From: Candidatus Bathyarchaeota archaeon
GTDB lineage: Archaea; Thermoproteota; Bathyarchaeia; Bathyarchaeales; Bathycorpusculaceae
Assembly (NCBI GenBank): GCA_963770935.1
Contig: CAVYRJ010000015.1
Location: 1-41,799 of the forward strand
Direction: 5' to 3'
DNA: 41,799 bases
Shown here: in pieces, positions 9,177 to 18,761 of the stretch
Layout of the letters: the number at the start of each line of letters is the position of its first letter
How positions within the stretch are numbered: the stretch's first letter is position 1
The notes under the pieces: generated by a model
What the model was told of the DNA's origin: nothing
The model's database searches: none
Seen by the model: only the letters and a program-made list of their open reading frames with translations
Program-made: the position numbers and the translations under genes

Positions 9177-9254
9177 GGGCCGGTCGTCTAGCCTGGTTAG
9201 GACATCTGCTTGACGTGCAGAAGGTCGCCGGTCCGAATCCGGTCCGGCCCACCA
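9177..9254 (+). tRNA. tRNA-Val(GAC)
   Basis: Acceptor GGGCCGG/CCGGCCC, ACCA encoded, anticodon arm TCTGC-TT GAC GT-GCAGA. T loop reads TCCGAAT. Confidence 0.95.
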
Positions 9255-11993: not shown

Positions 11994-13907
11994 TCAGGCT
12001 TCGTTAATTCTTGAAATAATTTTCAATTGCGTTTCTTGAAGTAGAGCATCAAACCACTTCCTGATACAATAACAAATATTATTGCAGCCCAAAGCCACCA
12101 TTGAAACCAAATTGGCTGGCAGCGGGATATTAACGGTGTTGCTGATTTGGAGTTCATCTATAGTGCAAATTGAGTCGTGGCCGATGTAGATTTCGTTTTG
12201 ACGTGATATAGCGCCCGTGGGATTTGCGTCTCCATATGTAGTGTATACTGCTTGCTCTTGTCCATTAACATAAATGTGCATCCCTGTGGTTAAGCTACGA
12301 GTGAAAACTACATGAATCCATTTGTTAAGTGACACAACTGATTCTTTAGTTACAATCTCGTTAAAAACACCGTTCTTTGTGAATACGTATCCTCGAAGTG
12401 CACCCACTTGTGGGGAACTTGCGTTTCTGGGAGCTTCTCCATTGATGGCTAACCCAAATGTTCTCGTTGGCGTGGCATTGATTGTTCTAGCACATTCGAC
12501 AAGAATGTTGTTGTAGGCCACACCATCTTTGAAGGATTGAACATTTATCCACGCTTCCACAGTTGTTTCCTCAGAGGTTTCCAGGCTAAGTGAAGGAGGT
12601 ACGTTTACGTACGAGTGACCATCGAAGCTTAAGGCTGCTCCGAATTTTCCTTCTACTGCCATTGGTGTGAATAATTTGTTTACCGTTTTTGGTCCAAGAG
12701 TTGCAGGGTTTTTGCCTGTGGAGTCTGGGGTGATGCCGTTGGAATCAATTGAGTCAAATGACCAAGAGGCAACTAAGCTGTTAGGGGCTGCGGTTGGAGA
12801 AGAGTTTGGGGATGGTACATTTCTCAAGTTTGAGGTATCGTACGGAGTCCAGAGAGGGTAGTTATCAATATTGCTAGCGTGAATTAGATAAGGAGTATTA
12901 CCTATACCCGAAGTGTTAATTTGTTTAGCGTTTGGGTATCTTGTGAGGTAATCGCTCCAGTAATTTCCGCCTAACTCAAACCCATTATCCCAGCGCTCTA
13001 CAGGTAAAGAAGAATTGTCAAATGCGTTATTACTGTTGTTTACAAAGTTGTTGCGATAGAAAGTGTTATCGTGAGATGCGGCTAATTGAGGCGAAATAAA
13101 AATACCCCACTTGTTTTCCTTGAAATCATTCGATGAAACTATGTTTTGAGAGCCTGCGAAAAAGAGTCCAGATTCAATGTTGGAAGCGATAAGGTTTCCG
13201 AATATTACGGAGTAAGAGGAACCAAAACCGATGCCACGGTAATTATTTTCGATTCTGTTTTTCGCGATAGTGTTTAAGTAACCTTCCATTGCAATTCCTG
13301 AAACGCCGTTTTCGGTGATTTCGTTTTCGGAAATATTGTTGTATGAGCTGCCTAAGAAGCGGATGCCGTCTTTGAGGTTTGCGGTTATTGTGTTTTTAGA
13401 TATTTTTGTGTATGATTGGATTGAGCAAAAGATGCCATAGTAGTTATTTTGGATAATGTTGCCTGTTATGGTGGCGTGGTCGCCTTGGATATTGATGCCG
13501 GTTGCGTAGTAGGAGGTGTTTGAGTACTTGAGGCTTTTAATGGTGAACCCTGAAACATTCACTTTGTCCGCGGTTATTTCAATCACCGAATTTGCGCCCC
13601 GTTCAATTCCACCAGCTCCAATTAAAATCGTATTATGGGCATCCTCGCCTACAATCGAAATCGATTTGTTGATTTGCAAGTTCTCATAATAGACACCTGC
13701 CCTCACCAAGATGACGTCGCCCTCAGACGCATGGCTGATAGCTTCATTTATTGTGGGGTAATCCTGAGGAACAGTAAATGTTTTGGAAGCATTGCTCGTC
13801 GGGAAATTAAGTATCCAAATTGCAGAGAAAACGATTATTGTTAGAGTCAAAGTCTTCATGATAGCTTTTTTTTCTGCGTTCGGCAACAATCTGATTTGAA
13901 GGTTCAT
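11994..13907 (-). CDS. Cell-surface protein with NosD/CASH parallel beta-helix and LamG-like domain
   Basis: Signal peptide (probable start ATG 13859), TVPQDYPTINEAI, N-rich beta-helix repeats, GNYWSDY, then LamG motifs (VASWSFD, GKFGAALSFDG, W.HVVFT, IYVNG, IDELQI). A frameshift near 12115 restores the TM anchor QWWLWAAIIFVIVSGSGLMLYFKKRN ending at 12023. Confidence 0.88.
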   Translation of the reverse strand: MNLQIRLLPNAEKKAIMKTLTLTIIVFSAIWILNFPTSNASKTFTVPQDYPTINEAISHASEGDVILVRAGVYYENLQINKSISIVGEDAHNTILIGAGGIERGANSVIEITADKVNVSGFTIKSLKYSNTSYYATGINIQGDHATITGNIIQNNYYGIFCSIQSYTKISKNTITANLKDGIRFLGSSYNNISENEITENGVSGIAMEGYLNTIAKNRIENNYRGIGFGSSYSVIFGNLIASNIESGLFFAGSQNIVSSNDFKENKWGIFISPQLAASHDNTFYRNNFVNNSNNAFDNSSLPVERWDNGFELGGNYWSDYLTRYPNAKQINTSGIGNTPYLIHASNIDNYPLWTPYDTSNLRNVPSPNSSPTAAPNSLVASWSFDSIDSNGITPDSTGKNPATLGPKTVNKLFTPMAVEGKFGAALSFDGHSYVNVPPSLSLETSEETTVEAWINVQSFKDGVAYNNILVECARTINATPTRTFGLAINGEAPRNASSPQVGALRGYVFTKNGVFNEIVTKESVVSLNKWIHVVFTRSLTTGMHIYVNGQEQAVYTTYGDANPTGAISRQNEIYIGHDSICTIDELQISNTVNIPLPANLVSMVALGCNNICYCIRKWFDALLQETQLKIISRINEA

Positions 13908-14065
13908 CCAAACTCACCAAACAAGAGTAGTGAAACACCTGAAATATTACTCTCCCTAGAGAACAGAGTGTTCTCCAAGCGGAACAGCAAAATTCCATAA
14001 AAATTGGTGCATATTTATGGGAAGTGGGGTCTGTCAATATTTCGTTCTTCATCTTCCCTATCAGA

Positions 14066-14109
14066 CTGGGACGGCGACATCATCCCCCGATGAATAAGCA
14101 CCGTCCCAG
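14066..14109. repeat. GC-rich hairpin upstream of the integrase
   Basis: CTGGGACGG (14066-14074) and CCGTCCCAG (14101-14109) form a perfect 9-bp stem with an inner TCATC-CCCC-GATGA stem. Confidence 0.75.
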
Positions 14110-14142
14110 ACTAAAAGGCCTTGGGTTAAAGGAGGAAAGAAA

Positions 14143-15097
14143 ATGAATCAAGAAACATAACCCAAGAACCCCAACAACAATAAACCGCAAGACCCCAAGA
14201 CATCGGAAAATTAAACATTCCAAACACAATGCTCTGGATGAAAAAAAACGCCTATGAAGCAAACAACCATTAAGACGAGTAGCCAAAGAGCTAAGACATT
14301 TAGAACGAAACTGCAACACAAGCAACCCCGAAGAAGTCAAACTCTTCATAGCAAAAAAGAATTGCTCAAACGCAAGAAAAGAAAACCTAATAGAATCATA
14401 CAACTAGTGATAAAATCCTTAGGATTAACATGGAACAAGCCCTTTTACGAACGCTACGATAAGAAACGCAGAGCACCAAAAGAAGAACTCATAGACTTTA
14501 TGATTAATCACTTTCGCTTTGAAATGGCACTTAAACTAACCATGCTGAAAGACTTAGGAACACGTCCTAAAGAACTCCTATGGTTAACAGTCCAAGGACA
14601 TAGACCTAACACTGGAATCGTCAGCATAACAGGAGCAAAACACACAGTAGGACGAGATGGAAAATTAAAACCCAAATCAATGACACTACTAAAAGTCTAC
14701 ATAGAGAAGAGACGCCTAAAAGCAACAGTAAACTTTTCGAGCTCTCAAGCTCAGAATGTTTGAGGCGACTGTACGACATGCAAGAAACCGATTAGCCAAA
14801 GACTACAATATGCCAGAGCTCAAACAAATCTGCTTATATGATTTTAGACGTTTTCAAGGAACCTCCAAGAGATTACCACTTATCAGGCGGAACACATTCT
14901 ATGAATCAAAGCAATCACTCGGACACAAAGACTTCCGAAGCATAGAAAAATACATCAGCATATTTGATGACAGCAACGTAAACTGGATACCAGTAATATG
15001 CCACAACCAGAGCAGAAATAGAACAAGCCATCAAAGACGATTGCAATCTTAGTTTGCCAAGCAGAAGGAATAACAGTACTTCAAGAAACCAGCATAA
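14143..15097 (+). CDS. Tyrosine recombinase/integrase, multiply frameshifted
   Basis: RBS GGAGG at 14131-14135. Catalytic set LGTRPKELLWL (R), GAKH (K), YDFRR (xxxR), LGHK (H), EKYI (Y). The N-terminal part MLWMKKNAYE...NPEEVKLFIAKKNCSNARK is in other frames. Confidence 0.85.
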
Positions 15098-15109
15098 CCA
15101 CCTTTTCTT

Positions 15110-15787
15110 TTAGCTGGTAACTGAAGTTTCATTTGACTTGGTTAATTCAATGAGAAATTCAGGATAACGTGTTTCTCGCAAGGCATTACCAGTCGTTATG
15201 ACAAAAGCTGAGACAAGAACAAGCTCCGTCTTTAGGTCAAATTCTTCATTGACCGATCTTAACTCGACCGTTCGGAAGGGGGTCAAATTCGGTATGCGCG
15301 ATGGTCATTTCGGCAGACCGTTTGTTTATAATGGAAAGTTGAAGTCCTGATGATTTAGGAATGCTAATTTTTCCGCTAAAGTAGCATTGTCCAGATCTCG
15401 AACTTCTTAGCAGATTGCATTGTTTGAGTAAACATTCAAATTCAGGATGACACTGCATTAAAAACCTAGATCAATTGGTCGACAACAGTTGTAATCGACG
15501 ATTTCGAAGCAAAACCTAGATGAAGATAGTGCAATCCTGACCGTTTCAGTTTCGTTACTCGGAGCACAAAATTCAGACACTTCAGAAAGGAATTTACCTG
15601 CTGTTTTGAAGTATTTCCCTCGACTCAAAATTTTATTTGCGCAAGGTGCTAAAATTTTATGAGCGTAATCAGAATTCTTTATCGCTTCGACCATCGGTTT
15701 TAACTCAGATAGAAAGTCAATATACTCCTTACTGGAAAGAAGATTCTGAGTTAGTTTTTCACCCGTTAGTTCTGGCTTGTCACTCAA
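15110..15787 (-). CDS. Cargo protein, possible HEPN domain, frameshifted
   Basis: ORFs 15458-15787 and 15246-15458 plus a further frame ending TAA at 15110. Removing one base near 15303 gives RNDIAH, an R-x4-H motif. Confidence 0.5.
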
Positions 15788-16317
15788 TAGTATGACCCCT
15801 GCACGTTATCGCATCATGAGCTATTAAATTAATTGCAATTTAATAAATTAACAGACCAGCGCTTTGCTCCCGCTTGCGCGCTCGCTCCGCTTCGCTCTTG
15901 CCGAACTAACTCGCAAAAGCCAAACGTTTCCAATAGCTATACATCGATTTCCTCAGCACCCAAGACCCAAAAATGATTGAGACTTACCAAGCTCCTTTTG
16001 CTAACGTGGGTTTTTGCACAGCAAACAAACAGATAAAAAAGATAGGATTGCAGTATATCTTAAATATAGGCAAAGTTGACTTTCCAACTATCGAGCCATA
16101 GAAAAAAAGGGAAAAAATATTTTACCTTTAGTCATAGAAGGTTAATTTGCAATCATCAACTCCGGAAAATGCGAAACCGATCCCTCCTGGCAATTGGGTA
16201 CCGTCAAAGCCTATAGTAATGCGTTCCGTGAAGCCGAAGGGTTGCATGTTGCTGTTGGTCAATGATAATCTGCTGGTTGTTATAGTCAGTTGTAATCGGA
16301 GCATTGAGTCTTTAAGT

Positions 16318-16620
16318 CTACGGGCCTTCCTCTTCGCCTACTGGCTCAGCTGTTGTCTTTATTCCATTCTCCGAGGTTGGGCCACTCCAAAGCAGGTACA
16401 TGGGTTTTTCGTTTTGGAGAAGACCTATTGTATTCTCGAAGTCGGCTAAGTGGTAATGTAGGTTAACTCCGCTGGCGTTGTTGTCTGCTGGAAGAGCTGT
16501 CCCATCGGGTTTGAAGATAAGTTGCCCTATGAATTTTCCCGCACTCTTTAGCCAGATTCGCGGTGGGAATTTGTTGGAGGAATACATGACTTCATACTCA
16601 TCGATTTTTGTCAAAACCAA
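16318..16620 (-). CDS. Hypothetical protein, about 100 aa
   Basis: Strong RBS GGAGGTGA before TTG at 16620. Globular-looking sequence ending TTAEPVGEEE. Confidence 0.75.
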   Translation of the reverse strand: MVLTKIDEYEVMYSSNKFPPRIWLKSAGKFIGQLIFKPDGTALPADNNASGVNLHYHLADFENTIGLLQNEKPMYLLWSGPTSENGIKTTAEPVGEEEGP

Positions 16621-17305
16621 GATTATCACCTCCTCTTTTTTCCGCTTAAAAGAACGCAAAAGCTCTATTTAACGCGGTTTACTTATATGGTTTGTGCAGT
16701 AGATAGTCATAGGAAAACTGAAGCCAAGATTTTCTGATGTAGCCAAGATGATTCTCAATGGTTCTGCAGTGCTTATTGGCACTGAAATGGAGATATGACA
16801 AATCCCTAAAATGTACTGAAACTTCGTAAAAGGGCACATGGAAATTTACACCTCCCTTAGAATACTCTCCTCACGCGTAAGGAATCTGTTTTTATACGAG
16901 CAAATCGTGGTCAAAGGATTAGCGTATTAAGTCTCAACGCGATCAAGAATTCCTGAAAAAACACTCTTAACGGTGATACCAATCAATTATAGCGTCGCAG
17001 ACTTTTTTTGAATATCCACAACCTGGCAGCAAATCAAAAACAGACTCTATTTTGCTATCGTTTATCGCATTCATACCCTGAATCTCGATATTTCAGCTTA
17101 TAAATTATATGGATTGCGGTTAAACAATGTATAATTGTTGAACAACAATACAGAATTTTATAATTATTATAATCTTTTGGAGTTTTTAAATTCCCGCCTC
17201 AGAACTTTTACAGTCTTTCAACTTTGAAAAAACAACAGCTGGACAGCCATATTTATTAATAAATCCATTAGCTCCTAAGGCAGATGCTTTCGCAGCTAGC
17301 AGAAT

Positions 17306-17530
17306 TTATTGCTTGAAAATAATTAAAAAATTCTCGGTTTTTTCGCATAGAACTCCTCTAATCTTAAGAAATAGCTCTATTTGGCTAGAGTCATACTCGC
17401 CTTTTATTTCAAGTTGAAATTTGTCTGGTTTCTTTTGTTCAATTAAAACTAGGTGCGGATGAACGTAACCATTAGCAACTAAGTCTGTAAATAGAGCCAC
17501 CGCTTCTTTCCTATTCAATGCGTTCCCCAA
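17306..17530 (-). CDS. Small hypothetical protein
   Basis: About 70-aa ORF (NRKEAVALF...FLIIFKQ) with plausible alpha/beta patterning. Confidence 0.6.
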   Translation of the reverse strand: MGNALNRKEAVALFTDLVANGYVHPHLVLIEQKKPDKFQLEIKGEYDSSQIELFLKIRGVLCEKTENFLIIFKQ

Positions 17531-17688
17531 AAGCCTTCTGAACGTACAATATTAATAACTCTTTGCATAACTGAACGGAACGAAGCTTGAAATAGAATTT
17601 AGCTGAAAAGCAAAAACTAAATTTCGAAAACTCTATTTGCTCTTGTGTAATAGCTTAAAAAAGAAAAGTGGATTATTGACTTATTCTT

Positions 17689-18324
17689 TTAGACAGTTGT
17701 TGGTGGAGGTAAGCCTGAAGCGGGGATGGGCTGTTCACTAGTCTTCAGTGTAAAGAAGGCAATTGCCAGTAACAGCGCTGCTATCCACATTAGGATTAAT
17801 CCAATTAATGGGACTATAGCGCCTATTAGCAACAGTAATCCAGCGGTTCCAAATAAGCCCACATTTGATTTGTTTGAAACTTGTTTTAGCGAGCGATAAA
17901 TAAAGAATGCTGCAATTATAGCGAAAACCCAAACTATTACCAAAACAACGAGTAGCCCTCCGATAAGTGGAAAGATAGCGGATGGATCAATGTTGGTGTT
18001 AGGAGTCATGCCTTGAAGTGTTGACCACTCACCATTCCAGCCTGGATAGAGTTGCATTAAAAGATCCCTTAAGTTTGACAGGACAACTGCAAATGCAAGT
18101 ATACTTGTAATGATTCCGCCTACTATGATGATTGCGACACCATAAAGGGCATTGCTGAAGATGCCTCCTTCTTTGTAATAATTAGCTAAGCCACGTAAAG
18201 CAACCAAGATCAGTATTGCGCCTATGATACCGATTACCCATGTGTATTGAATGAAGGGTATTACGCCAATGAAAAGCAGTATTGCGCCTATGCCGCCTAA
18301 AGTTTTGCTTGATTCTAAAGTCAA
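17689..18324 (-). CDS. DUF996 family membrane protein, paralogue of 9465-10022
   Basis: MTLESSKTLGGIG...LFGTAGLLLLIGA...WIAALLLAIAFF with a PPPT tail. Confidence 0.85.
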   Translation of the reverse strand: MTLESSKTLGGIGAILLFIGVIPFIQYTWVIGIIGAILILVALRGLANYYKEGGIFSNALYGVAIIIVGGIITSILAFAVVLSNLRDLLMQLYPGWNGEWSTLQGMTPNTNIDPSAIFPLIGGLLVVLVIVWVFAIIAAFFIYRSLKQVSNKSNVGLFGTAGLLLLIGAIVPLIGLILMWIAALLLAIAFFTLKTSEQPIPASGLPPPTTV

Positions 18325-18440
18325 TTTGTTTTCCTCTAGATTTCTGTCACTATCATTAGGATAAAAGCTTTTTCATTCGGCATAGCAAACGTTGGTTCTT
18401 GGCCAATTGTAAACCATGAAGTAAGAATGCTAGATTATTG

Positions 18441-18761
18441 TTAATTGTTGTTTTCGAGTTGTCCCTGCAGAATATCGTAGTAAGTTTGCAGGTAGATTTT
18501 CCCTTTTTCAGTTATAGCATACACTTTTCTAGCGCGTCCATCCTTTTTTTGTTTACTGCTTTCGACAAAGCCTTTTTCTTCAAGACTCTTTAGTGTGGGG
18601 TAGAGTGATCCATGTCGAAGTTTCACGTTGAAATCTGATTCTACTTGTTTTTTGATTTTGTATCCCCATATTGGCTGGTTTTGTATAATGCGGAGGAGTT
18701 GGATATCTAGTAAGTTTCTGATTATGTGTTGTACAATTTCTTTTTTGTATGTTTCAGACAT
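18441..18761 (-). CDS. PadR family regulator
   Basis: WGYKIKK...GSLYPTLKSLEEKGFV...RKVYAITEKG. Confidence 0.92.
   Translation of the reverse strand: MSETYKKEIVQHIIRNLLDIQLLRIIQNQPIWGYKIKKQVESDFNVKLRHGSLYPTLKSLEEKGFVESSKQKKDGRARKVYAITEKGKIYLQTYYDILQGQLENNN

Follow-up and report, generated by a model that had tools for sequence, protein, structure and literature searches.

The window analysed here, 41,799 nucleotides (nt) long, is the whole of contig C15 (CAVYRJ010000015.1; 41.8 kb) of a Candidatus Bathyarchaeota archaeon genome, designated G000, which amounts to 1.98 Mb in 18 contigs. Side by side within it lie a predicted gene for a small RNA (sRNA) of the C/D box type, 63 nt long (14026..14088, minus strand), a tyrosine integrase pseudogene (14143..15097, plus strand), and a cargo pseudogene convergent with the integrase (15110..15808, minus strand). 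As judged from the window and its relatives, the attachment site (attB) of this integrase family is the 5′ part of the conserved C/D box sRNA gene, and the element in the window sits at the family's usual docking site. Positions 14089 to at least ~15960 are probably the decayed left part of a small site-specific integrative (cryptic plasmid-like) element that docks at the sRNA gene.

Integrase and cargo pseudogenes

The original prediction described a recombinase of ~310 amino acids (aa) with the full R-K-(Y)xxR-H-Y set. All of these residues can be read in the remnant (R14563, K14638, Y14837/R14846, H14924, and Y14951), but R and K stand in one frame and YxxR, H, and Y in another, with at least nine frame changes along the gene and a TAA at codon 6. 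There is no open reading frame (ORF) of ~310 aa at 14.1 to 15.8 kb; the longest plus-strand pieces, 169 and 98 aa, are in different frames. Both the integrase and the cargo gene are readable only by hopping frames in a three-frame translation, and it was by such translation, together with frameshift-aware alignment, that the integrase pseudogene was delimited. From the ATG at 14143 the frame ends after five codons, at the TAA of 14158-14160, and the original stop is the TAA at 15095-15097. In a frameshift-aware alignment, the intact 311-aa homologue P0005 matches 14147-15097 with 236 of 309 aligned residues identical (76%) and 9 frame changes. A DNA alignment with six intact homologues places 11 indel events in the gene, 10 of which are not multiples of 3; the frame-breaking events are all 1 to 4 nt long and are mostly single G insertions outside homopolymer runs. 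An uninterrupted reading frame, as a functional integrase would have, is absent from the window, and we take the frameshifts to be real mutations.

In profile searches, the best Pfam score of the integrase fragments is 13.1 bits, against a cutoff of 27.1 for PF00589, and the window integrase does not appear in whole-genome family search results at E ≤ 0.01. The intact P0005 scores 34.9 bits on PF00589 and matches phrog_216 (integrase). Of 331 candidate proteins, 166 belong to the family at E ≤ 1e-3, most of them 280 to 315 aa long and labelled as Bathyarchaeia integrases. A PDB sequence search with P0005 gave XerD as its best match (E = 0.16, not significant), and tblastn against plasmid and phage collections found no archaeal relative of it. 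The family has no characterised close relative.

The cargo pseudogene, delimited by frameshift-aware alignment, is a relative of 222-aa proteins with no known family. The original prediction correctly placed it convergent to the integrase with 12 nt between the two stops (the cargo stop, TTA on the plus strand, is at 15110-15112); the gene itself is dead, with at least seven frameshifts and two internal stops. It survives as three or more minus-strand pieces, among them pieces of 109, 70, and 58 aa, and aligns over its full length with the intact 222-aa protein P0122 at 113 of 222 identical residues, with 7 frame changes and 2 internal stops. A search of 1.84 billion representatives yielded only 3 relatives of the 222-aa family, which matched nothing in Pfam or PHROG. 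In the protein atlas it fell into unnamed clusters only, apart from a lead to a HEPN family scored at 0.77, and its AlphaFold model has a mean predicted local distance difference test score of 61.6. An R-x4-H motif (RNGIAH in P0122) is, by our own reading, a weak lead in the same direction.

The proposal that the cargo varies was borne out, as the genes that accompany the integrase differ between relatives. The element in genome G010 carries a 383-aa ORF, and that in genome G008 carries a HEPN-domain protein (PF05168, E = 1.6e-6) and a 330-aa ORF; the 222-aa cargo type of the window is unlike either. The 330-aa ORF of the G008 element (L027:5184-6176, minus strand) has a Cys-rich N-terminal part and contains the stretch ...SPHFHIIGF..., which by eye resembles the HUH motif of rolling-circle replication proteins; the ORF has no Pfam or PHROG match. 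A contig from a soil-metagenome run, X1, is 95 to 99% alike to the window over 15540-16676, lacks the 82 nt of 15749-15830, and diverges to the left of 15540. A related strain therefore appears to have the cargo end in another form.

A conserved, predicted C/D box sRNA gene and its putative 23S rRNA target

In a DNA search with 12500-17600 against 41 genomes, positions 14025-14088 proved to be conserved at 80 to 92% across most members of the genus and, beyond it, in other families of the order; for the integrase gene, the same search gave only ~72% identity. We fetched the loci of 20 relatives for comparison and scanned one genome per species of the Genome Taxonomy Database (GTDB) with a degenerate 22-nt pattern made from its most conserved part, which returned at least 125 stretches, nearly all from Bathyarchaeia. 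In total, 79 distinct full copies of the sRNA gene could be aligned, and they span Bathyarchaeia. The pattern also matched records L049 (Acidilobaceae), L053 (Polyangiaceae), and L064 (Pontiellaceae) without the rest of the sRNA gene; these matches are probably chance or coding sequence.

The gene, defined from the sequence and the 79 aligned copies and identified here as both host gene and putative attB, reads on the minus strand as follows: a 5′ GGGGG (14088-14084), a C box AUGAUGU (14083-14077), a 12-nt D′ guide CGCCGUCCCAGU (14076-14065), a D′ box CUGA (14064-14061), a C′ box AUGAAGA (14052-14046), a 12-nt D guide ACGAAAUAUUGA (14045-14034), a D box CAGA (14033-14030), and a 3′ CCCC (14029-14026). 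This architecture holds across the class. As C box, 70 of the 79 copies have AUGAUGU and 8 have the canonical AUGAUGA; a D′ box CUGA is present in 64 and a C′ box AUGA(A/G/C)GA in 76. The spacer from C to D′ is exactly 12 nt in every copy (79/79); that from C′ to D is 12 nt in 51 copies and 11 nt in 17. In the consensus, the 5′ G-run pairs with CCCC to give a 4-bp terminal stem (GGGG/CCCC). Full copies are 57 to 67 nt long, and the gene is single-copy in G000.

The guides point to the large-subunit (LSU) rRNA. The invariant part of the D′ guide, GCCGUCCCAG, can pair with positions 2369-2378 (CUGGGGCGGC) of the organism's own LSU rRNA through 9 Watson-Crick pairs and 1 G·U pair; by alignment with E. 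coli rrlH, these positions are E. coli 2248-2257. Under the N+5 rule, the targeted base is G2251 in the P-loop of 23S rRNA, which lies opposite the guide base five positions upstream of D′. An equally good duplex was obtained by 43 of 2,000 shuffled guides. The class-wide commonest D guide pairs with E. coli 2590-2599, and 16 of 2,000 shuffled guides did as well. The sRNA would therefore be a likely guide RNA for the conserved P-loop methylation, and by this pairing it would direct methylation of G2251. In three archaea, the G2251 equivalent is a predicted target of C/D-guided methylation, according to passages of PMC4644070; as far as these passages tell, Bathyarchaeia were not in the set examined.

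The D′ guide never varies, and the class-wide D guide ACU(C/U)AUGACGG(A/G), which pairs with 23S domain V, has been replaced within the genus by ACGAAAUAUUGA and other variants. For two other genus-level D guides, no convincing rRNA target was found. The 23S gene of G000 lies on contig C9; a 16S rRNA gene was not found in the assembly.

The sRNA gene as putative attachment site

The stretch common to full and partial copies of the sRNA gene in relatives, the att core CTGGGACGGCGACATCATCCCC, lies at 14066..14087 in the window. It contains GGGACG and CATCCC separated by 7 nt, which we read as the usual layout of a tyrosine-recombinase core. All 20 fetched loci hold a full sRNA copy, and 6 of the 20 hold partial copies as well, the full copy being attL and the partial one attR. 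The partial copies, one or two per locus, lie 0.9 to 4.7 kb from the full copy and always on its C-box side. Each consists of CTGGGACGGCGACATCATCCCC, and in most of them a conserved ...GCCCTAAGG precedes the core instead of the remaining sRNA gene. Three more contigs have full and partial copies 3 to 5 kb apart (L108/L107, L047/L066, and L096/L055/L056), and the L047 and L066 copies carry the same lineage-specific variant of the core.

Integrases of the window's family sit between the full and partial copies. The elements of G010 (3.9 kb) and G008 (4.7 kb) each have an uninterrupted 315-aa integrase, G019 has a truncated one, and G003 and G007 have integrase stubs between the two copies. In G014 and G013, integrase stubs lie beside the full copy and no partial copy was found in the locus; G023 has a frameshifted integrase and likewise no partial copy in the locus. 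No integrase was detectable in 12 of the 20 fetched loci. In the GTDB-species sample, the matches listed include 57 full copies whose flank is 1.1 kb or longer; 12 of these have a near-full integrase on the C-box side, in one frame in 9, and 11 have an integrase remnant. On the D-box side of these 57 copies, no integrase match was present among the matches listed. What the relatives display is, as far as their sequences tell, classical site-specific integration with attL/attR direct repeats. In the window, the distance between the integrase start and the complete sRNA gene is 55 nt.

In metagenomes, the junction of CCTAAGG with the core occurs in 66 loci, and a full integrase lies directly behind it in 2 of the 66. 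Those two contigs would represent either the attP of a free element or a tandem array. A tandem array is found on the G003 chromosome (L023), where three core copies follow one another: a full sRNA gene, a partial copy 4.2 kb on, and another 2.8 kb further. The DNA between the copies contains the C-terminal stub of an integrase as well as unrelated genes, as if successive elements had accreted at one site. A scan of viral contigs with the 22-nt core gave 0 matches.

Because the core lies outside the integrase ORF, ending 55 nt before the ATG, and the integrase stays whole when integrated, as in the uninterrupted 315-aa ORFs of G010 and G008, this is not a "suicidal" integrase family like that of SSV. 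Some database proteins (such as P0031) extend N-terminally over the core, but there they only read through the host sRNA gene.

These arrangements suggest how integration would proceed. The attP of the free element would consist of the element's right end, ...GCCCTAAGG, followed by the 22-nt core and the integrase-proximal spacer. The tyrosine integrase would recombine the attP core with the same 22 nt in the sRNA gene, which hold its G-run, C box, and D′ guide. At attL, the sRNA gene would be complete, its promoter and all or some of its first 22 nt now coming from the element, with the integrase gene directly after it; at the far end, attR would be the 22-nt partial copy. We infer that recombination does take place at the core. 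In the window the element has died, with attR gone and the distal part probably gone too; the sRNA gene is intact, with ~55 nt of element DNA, well conserved, as its present upstream region.

That upstream region is the spacer at 14089..14142, between the sRNA gene and the integrase start, which we consider element-derived on the grounds of its hairpin and its identity to genomes G002 and G001. The original prediction had tandem hairpins at the left end, and a hairpin is present there, formed by the sRNA gene together with the DNA upstream of it: its arms, 14057-14074 and 14101-14118, fold on the minus strand at −37.5 kcal/mol, which 2 of 200 shuffles equalled (z = −2.5), and part of the second arm is CCGTCCCAGACT (14101-14112). 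The arm CGTCCCAG, allowing at least 7 of 8 matches and at a fixed offset of 13 to 16 nt beyond the core, is present in 47 of 144 distinct flanks, compared with 1 of 144 shuffled ones. An A/T box, CTAAAAG (14111-14117), lies ~26 nt upstream of the sRNA 5′ end and may be a TATA element; the spacer would supply the promoter of the rebuilt sRNA gene. In line with such a role, the spacer is highly identical in G002 and G001, both without integrase: 14016-14155 is 92% identical to G002 (142 nt) and 14025-14147 is 91% identical to G001 (127 nt), compared with only 67% for the neighbouring protein gene.

It is conceivable, although we consider it unlikely, that the elements are not just passengers at this site but themselves carriers of half a methylation-guide gene (G-run, C box, G2251 guide, and promoter region), with which they replace the host promoter and 5′ half. 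If true, a mobile element could influence ribosome modification in this way, and guide RNAs could be spread or remodelled by it. The arm CGTCCCAG, a fixed inverted copy of what the guide targets, may then serve to hide the guide within precursor transcripts, or may be an extra integrase site.

The left boundary of the remnant falls within 14066-14087. Toward the right, a G+C-rich conserved noncoding motif at 15857..15960 is common to the elements of G010 and G008, where it lies mid-element, so the remnant extends to at least ~15960. The original prediction placed a GC-rich foldback just outside the right repeat. The G+C enrichment stands (59% over 15857-15930, compared with 40% for the window), but the piece folds no better than shuffles (z = 0.0 and −1.2) and lies inside the related elements. 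Since no attR is recognisable and a 74-aa gene at 17306-17530 is common to the window and the right flank of G002, the right end should lie between ~15960 and ~17300, lost or erased. When ORFs of the relatives' elements were compared with 15100-17700 by tblastn and tblastx, nothing besides this 74-aa gene (orf74) was found. The ~75-nt form of the motif, GCTCCCGC..CGCTCCGCTT..CTTGCCGAA..CGCAAGAGCCAAACG, is common to three elements (the window, L019, and L027), and a DNA search also found the motif elsewhere in G008, G010, and G013. It could act as an origin or as some other cis site.

Competing explanations, related systems, and flanking genes

A number of observations weigh against the interpretation of the window as a decayed element docked at a guide RNA gene. 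Direct repeats flanking the element are not found in the window, which has one copy of the core only, and no second copy exists in G000 with up to 5 substitutions in 22. A decayed attR sought in 15000-18500 gave a best match of 17 of 33 positions, where shuffles average 17.4. Without a second core the right boundary is unmapped, and the window copy cannot by itself show integration. The relatives offered no clean empty site, a check that the original prediction had suggested: in G012 and L088, the right-flank genes that they share with the window are separated from the sRNA gene by other genes, and synteny did not place the right boundary. Among the 57 full copies described above, 34 have no detectable integrase among the matches listed. 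Among public runs, the best match contained 0.33 of the sampled words, and no contig from runs X1, X2, X4, and X10 spans 14096-15540. Other points concern the sRNA. It is predicted from sequence, and no Rfam family matches 13850-16150 at E ≤ 1. The D box is CAGA in 78 of the 79 copies, and the canonical CUGA occurs in 1. The G·U pair within the guide-P-loop duplex is conserved. No target was found among the rRNAs tested for the D guide of the window itself, and the 16S rRNA of this genome is not assembled.

One alternative is that the 63-nt stretch is a DNA-level site only, either an att or regulatory site in the leader of the adjoining NosD-like gene or a sequence spread by the elements. The lack of an Rfam match and the noncanonical D box would suit such a site, and the adjoining hairpin arm is conserved too, as protein-binding DNA would be. 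The sRNA by itself also folds no better than shuffles (z = 0.13), but C/D sRNAs are not expected to fold strongly alone. We regard this explanation as improbable in view of the order of the C/D and C′/D′ boxes, the invariant 12-nt spacer, and the 4-bp terminal stem, and because two guides match 23S domain V, one of them at G2251. Moreover, the C′ box, D box, and CCCC, which lie outside the core, are conserved as well, and the stretch occurs once per genome, on the host side.

It is also quite improbable that the frameshifts are consensus errors of a long-read metagenome-assembled genome (MAG), from mixed strain variants or low coverage, and that the element is intact and possibly active. By their record titles, the same-genus relatives come from long-read style MAG sets with few contigs, all 10 frame-breaking events in the integrase are short indels, residue identity to P0005 is still 76%, and the stretch 14096-15540 is the one that no public-run contig spans. 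However, the neighbouring genes of 415 to 637 aa around the remnant read without interruption, and the indels are mostly single G insertions away from homopolymers. Substitution-type defects are present too (the integrase TAA at codon 6 and the two in-frame cargo stops), attR is missing, and remnants at every stage of decay are common at this site in relatives.

The original prediction favoured a different kind of element, enclosed by an inverted repeat. The sequence GGTCTGTCAAT at 14028-14038 does have a 10/11 reverse complement at 15847..15857, so both arms are present; this repeat is, however, a chance match. At least one such 10/11 pair arises in 304 of 1,000 shuffles of both flanks (P ~0.30), and 13000-17000 contains 40 inverted pairs of at least 10 nt, with the 10/11 repeat not among the 25 longest. 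The left arm is the D box and 3′ stem of the host sRNA gene, outside the element, and the gene is conserved across Bathyarchaeia with or without integrase. The right arm is not conserved in two related elements that have the adjacent G+C-rich motif, so the expected conservation of an end motif in the flanks of homologues did not materialise. A minimal insertion sequence (IS)-like tyrosine-recombinase element with GGTCTGTYAAT inverted ends or folded single-stranded DNA hairpin sites and one cargo gene, for which the repeat, the strong hairpin, and the lack of a direct-repeat pair in the window might speak, is extremely improbable, given that the integrase-containing region is single-copy in G000, that neither conserved inverted ends nor a target-site duplication was found, and that relatives have direct repeats and element ends of the form ...CCTAAGG plus core. 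The likeness to IS elements, to IS200/IS605, and to integron attC sites is superficial, consisting only of the 11-nt inverted pair and the hairpin, and nothing in the window supports a new transposition mechanism.

Two further statements of the original prediction hold. The window has no direct-repeat att pair, which decay of the element explains, both of its genes being pseudogenes. There is also no adjacent tRNA gene: the nearest is a tRNA-Val gene at 9177-9254, and ARAGORN, with introns allowed, found none in 13800-16200.

Among the closest known systems are the classical, pNOB8-type (non-suicidal) tyrosine integrases of archaea and the cryptic elements integrated in archaeal genomes. As in these systems, the Bathyarchaeia family has a PF00589 domain (in the intact homologue) and the short direct repeats of site-specific integration, its elements are 1 to 5 kb long and carry variable genes, most of them unknown, and elements accrete in tandem and decay at a single site. 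In Thermococcales, passages of a 2021 review of archaeal tyrosine recombinases (PMC8371274) describe pTN3-like integrases with which the recombinant tRNA gene is expressed from element DNA beside the integrase gene, and pTN3-like/TKV4-type elements that target the 5′ half of a small stable-RNA gene and restore an uninterrupted copy. The Bathyarchaeia elements would do likewise, their core being the first 22 nt of the sRNA gene, with the integrase starting 55 nt upstream in divergent orientation. They differ from the Thermococcales elements in their target, which is a C/D box sRNA gene rather than a tRNA gene, in their host, and in a core that lies outside the integrase ORF, which makes them not suicidal.

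The rybB small-RNA gene is the attB of 186/Fels-2-like phages. Another small-RNA gene, ffs (4.5S RNA), is the attB of the bacterial prophage phiEf11, according to passages of PMC12540744. These prophages share with the Bathyarchaeia elements the use of a short conserved small-RNA gene as attB, rebuilt after integration; they belong to bacteria and tailed phages, whereas here the host would be archaeal, the site at the 5′ end, and the RNA a methylation guide. The predicted sRNA agrees with known archaeal C/D box sRNAs in its box order, 12-nt spacers, length of ~60 nt, and G2251-facing guide by N+5, and departs from them in its CAGA D box, conserved G·U, and lack of an Rfam family; it is a prediction only.

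Archaeal attB sites are given as tRNA genes, protein-coding genes, and intergenic regions in the passages seen of the 2021 tyrosine-recombinase review (PMC8371274), and the words sRNA, snoRNA, non-coding, and Bathyarchaeota are absent from its text. According to a 2021 review on the C/D box sRNAs of archaea, mobile features of their genes are still to be discovered. The text of a Pyrobaculum sRNA study contains no word beginning with integrat-, no integrase, and no virus, and the passages seen of a Bathyarchaeia virus paper mention integrases and no attachment sites. In open-licence PubMed Central papers and bioRxiv preprints (supplements excluded), we found no description of a C/D box sRNA gene as an archaeal integration target, although an earlier description is possible. 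The C/D box sRNA gene would be a new target class for archaea, and the object in the window is itself an ordinary dead remnant. The wider pattern is that an abundant Bathyarchaeia integrase family docks in the 5′ part of a class-wide C/D box sRNA gene. This makes the 22-nt site a precise handle for delimiting small integrated elements in Bathyarchaeia genomes and, together with its integrase, a candidate integrase/att pair on which genetic tools for this uncultured class could be based.

On the host flank, an intact gene for a 637-aa NosD/beta-helix protein (11994..13907, minus strand) lies downstream of the sRNA gene and is co-oriented with it. At least five fetched loci (L016-L019 and L022) likewise have a NosD-like gene beside the sRNA gene. 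In L025 (G013) and L026 (G021), ~4.3 to 4.9 kb of other DNA separates the NosD-like gene and its upstream stretch from the sRNA gene; this separation on the D-box side may be an insertion or a rearrangement. Further right, an intact 113-aa ORF (16318-16659, minus strand), which may be host DNA or element cargo, belongs to a widespread family of small proteins of ~100 aa that has no Pfam or PHROG family; 270 proteins match it at E ≤ 1e-3, many at ~70% identity, and a paralogue lies on contig C7 of the same genome. A 425-nt contig from the sediment metatranscriptome run X10 covers 16131-16555 with 3 differences.

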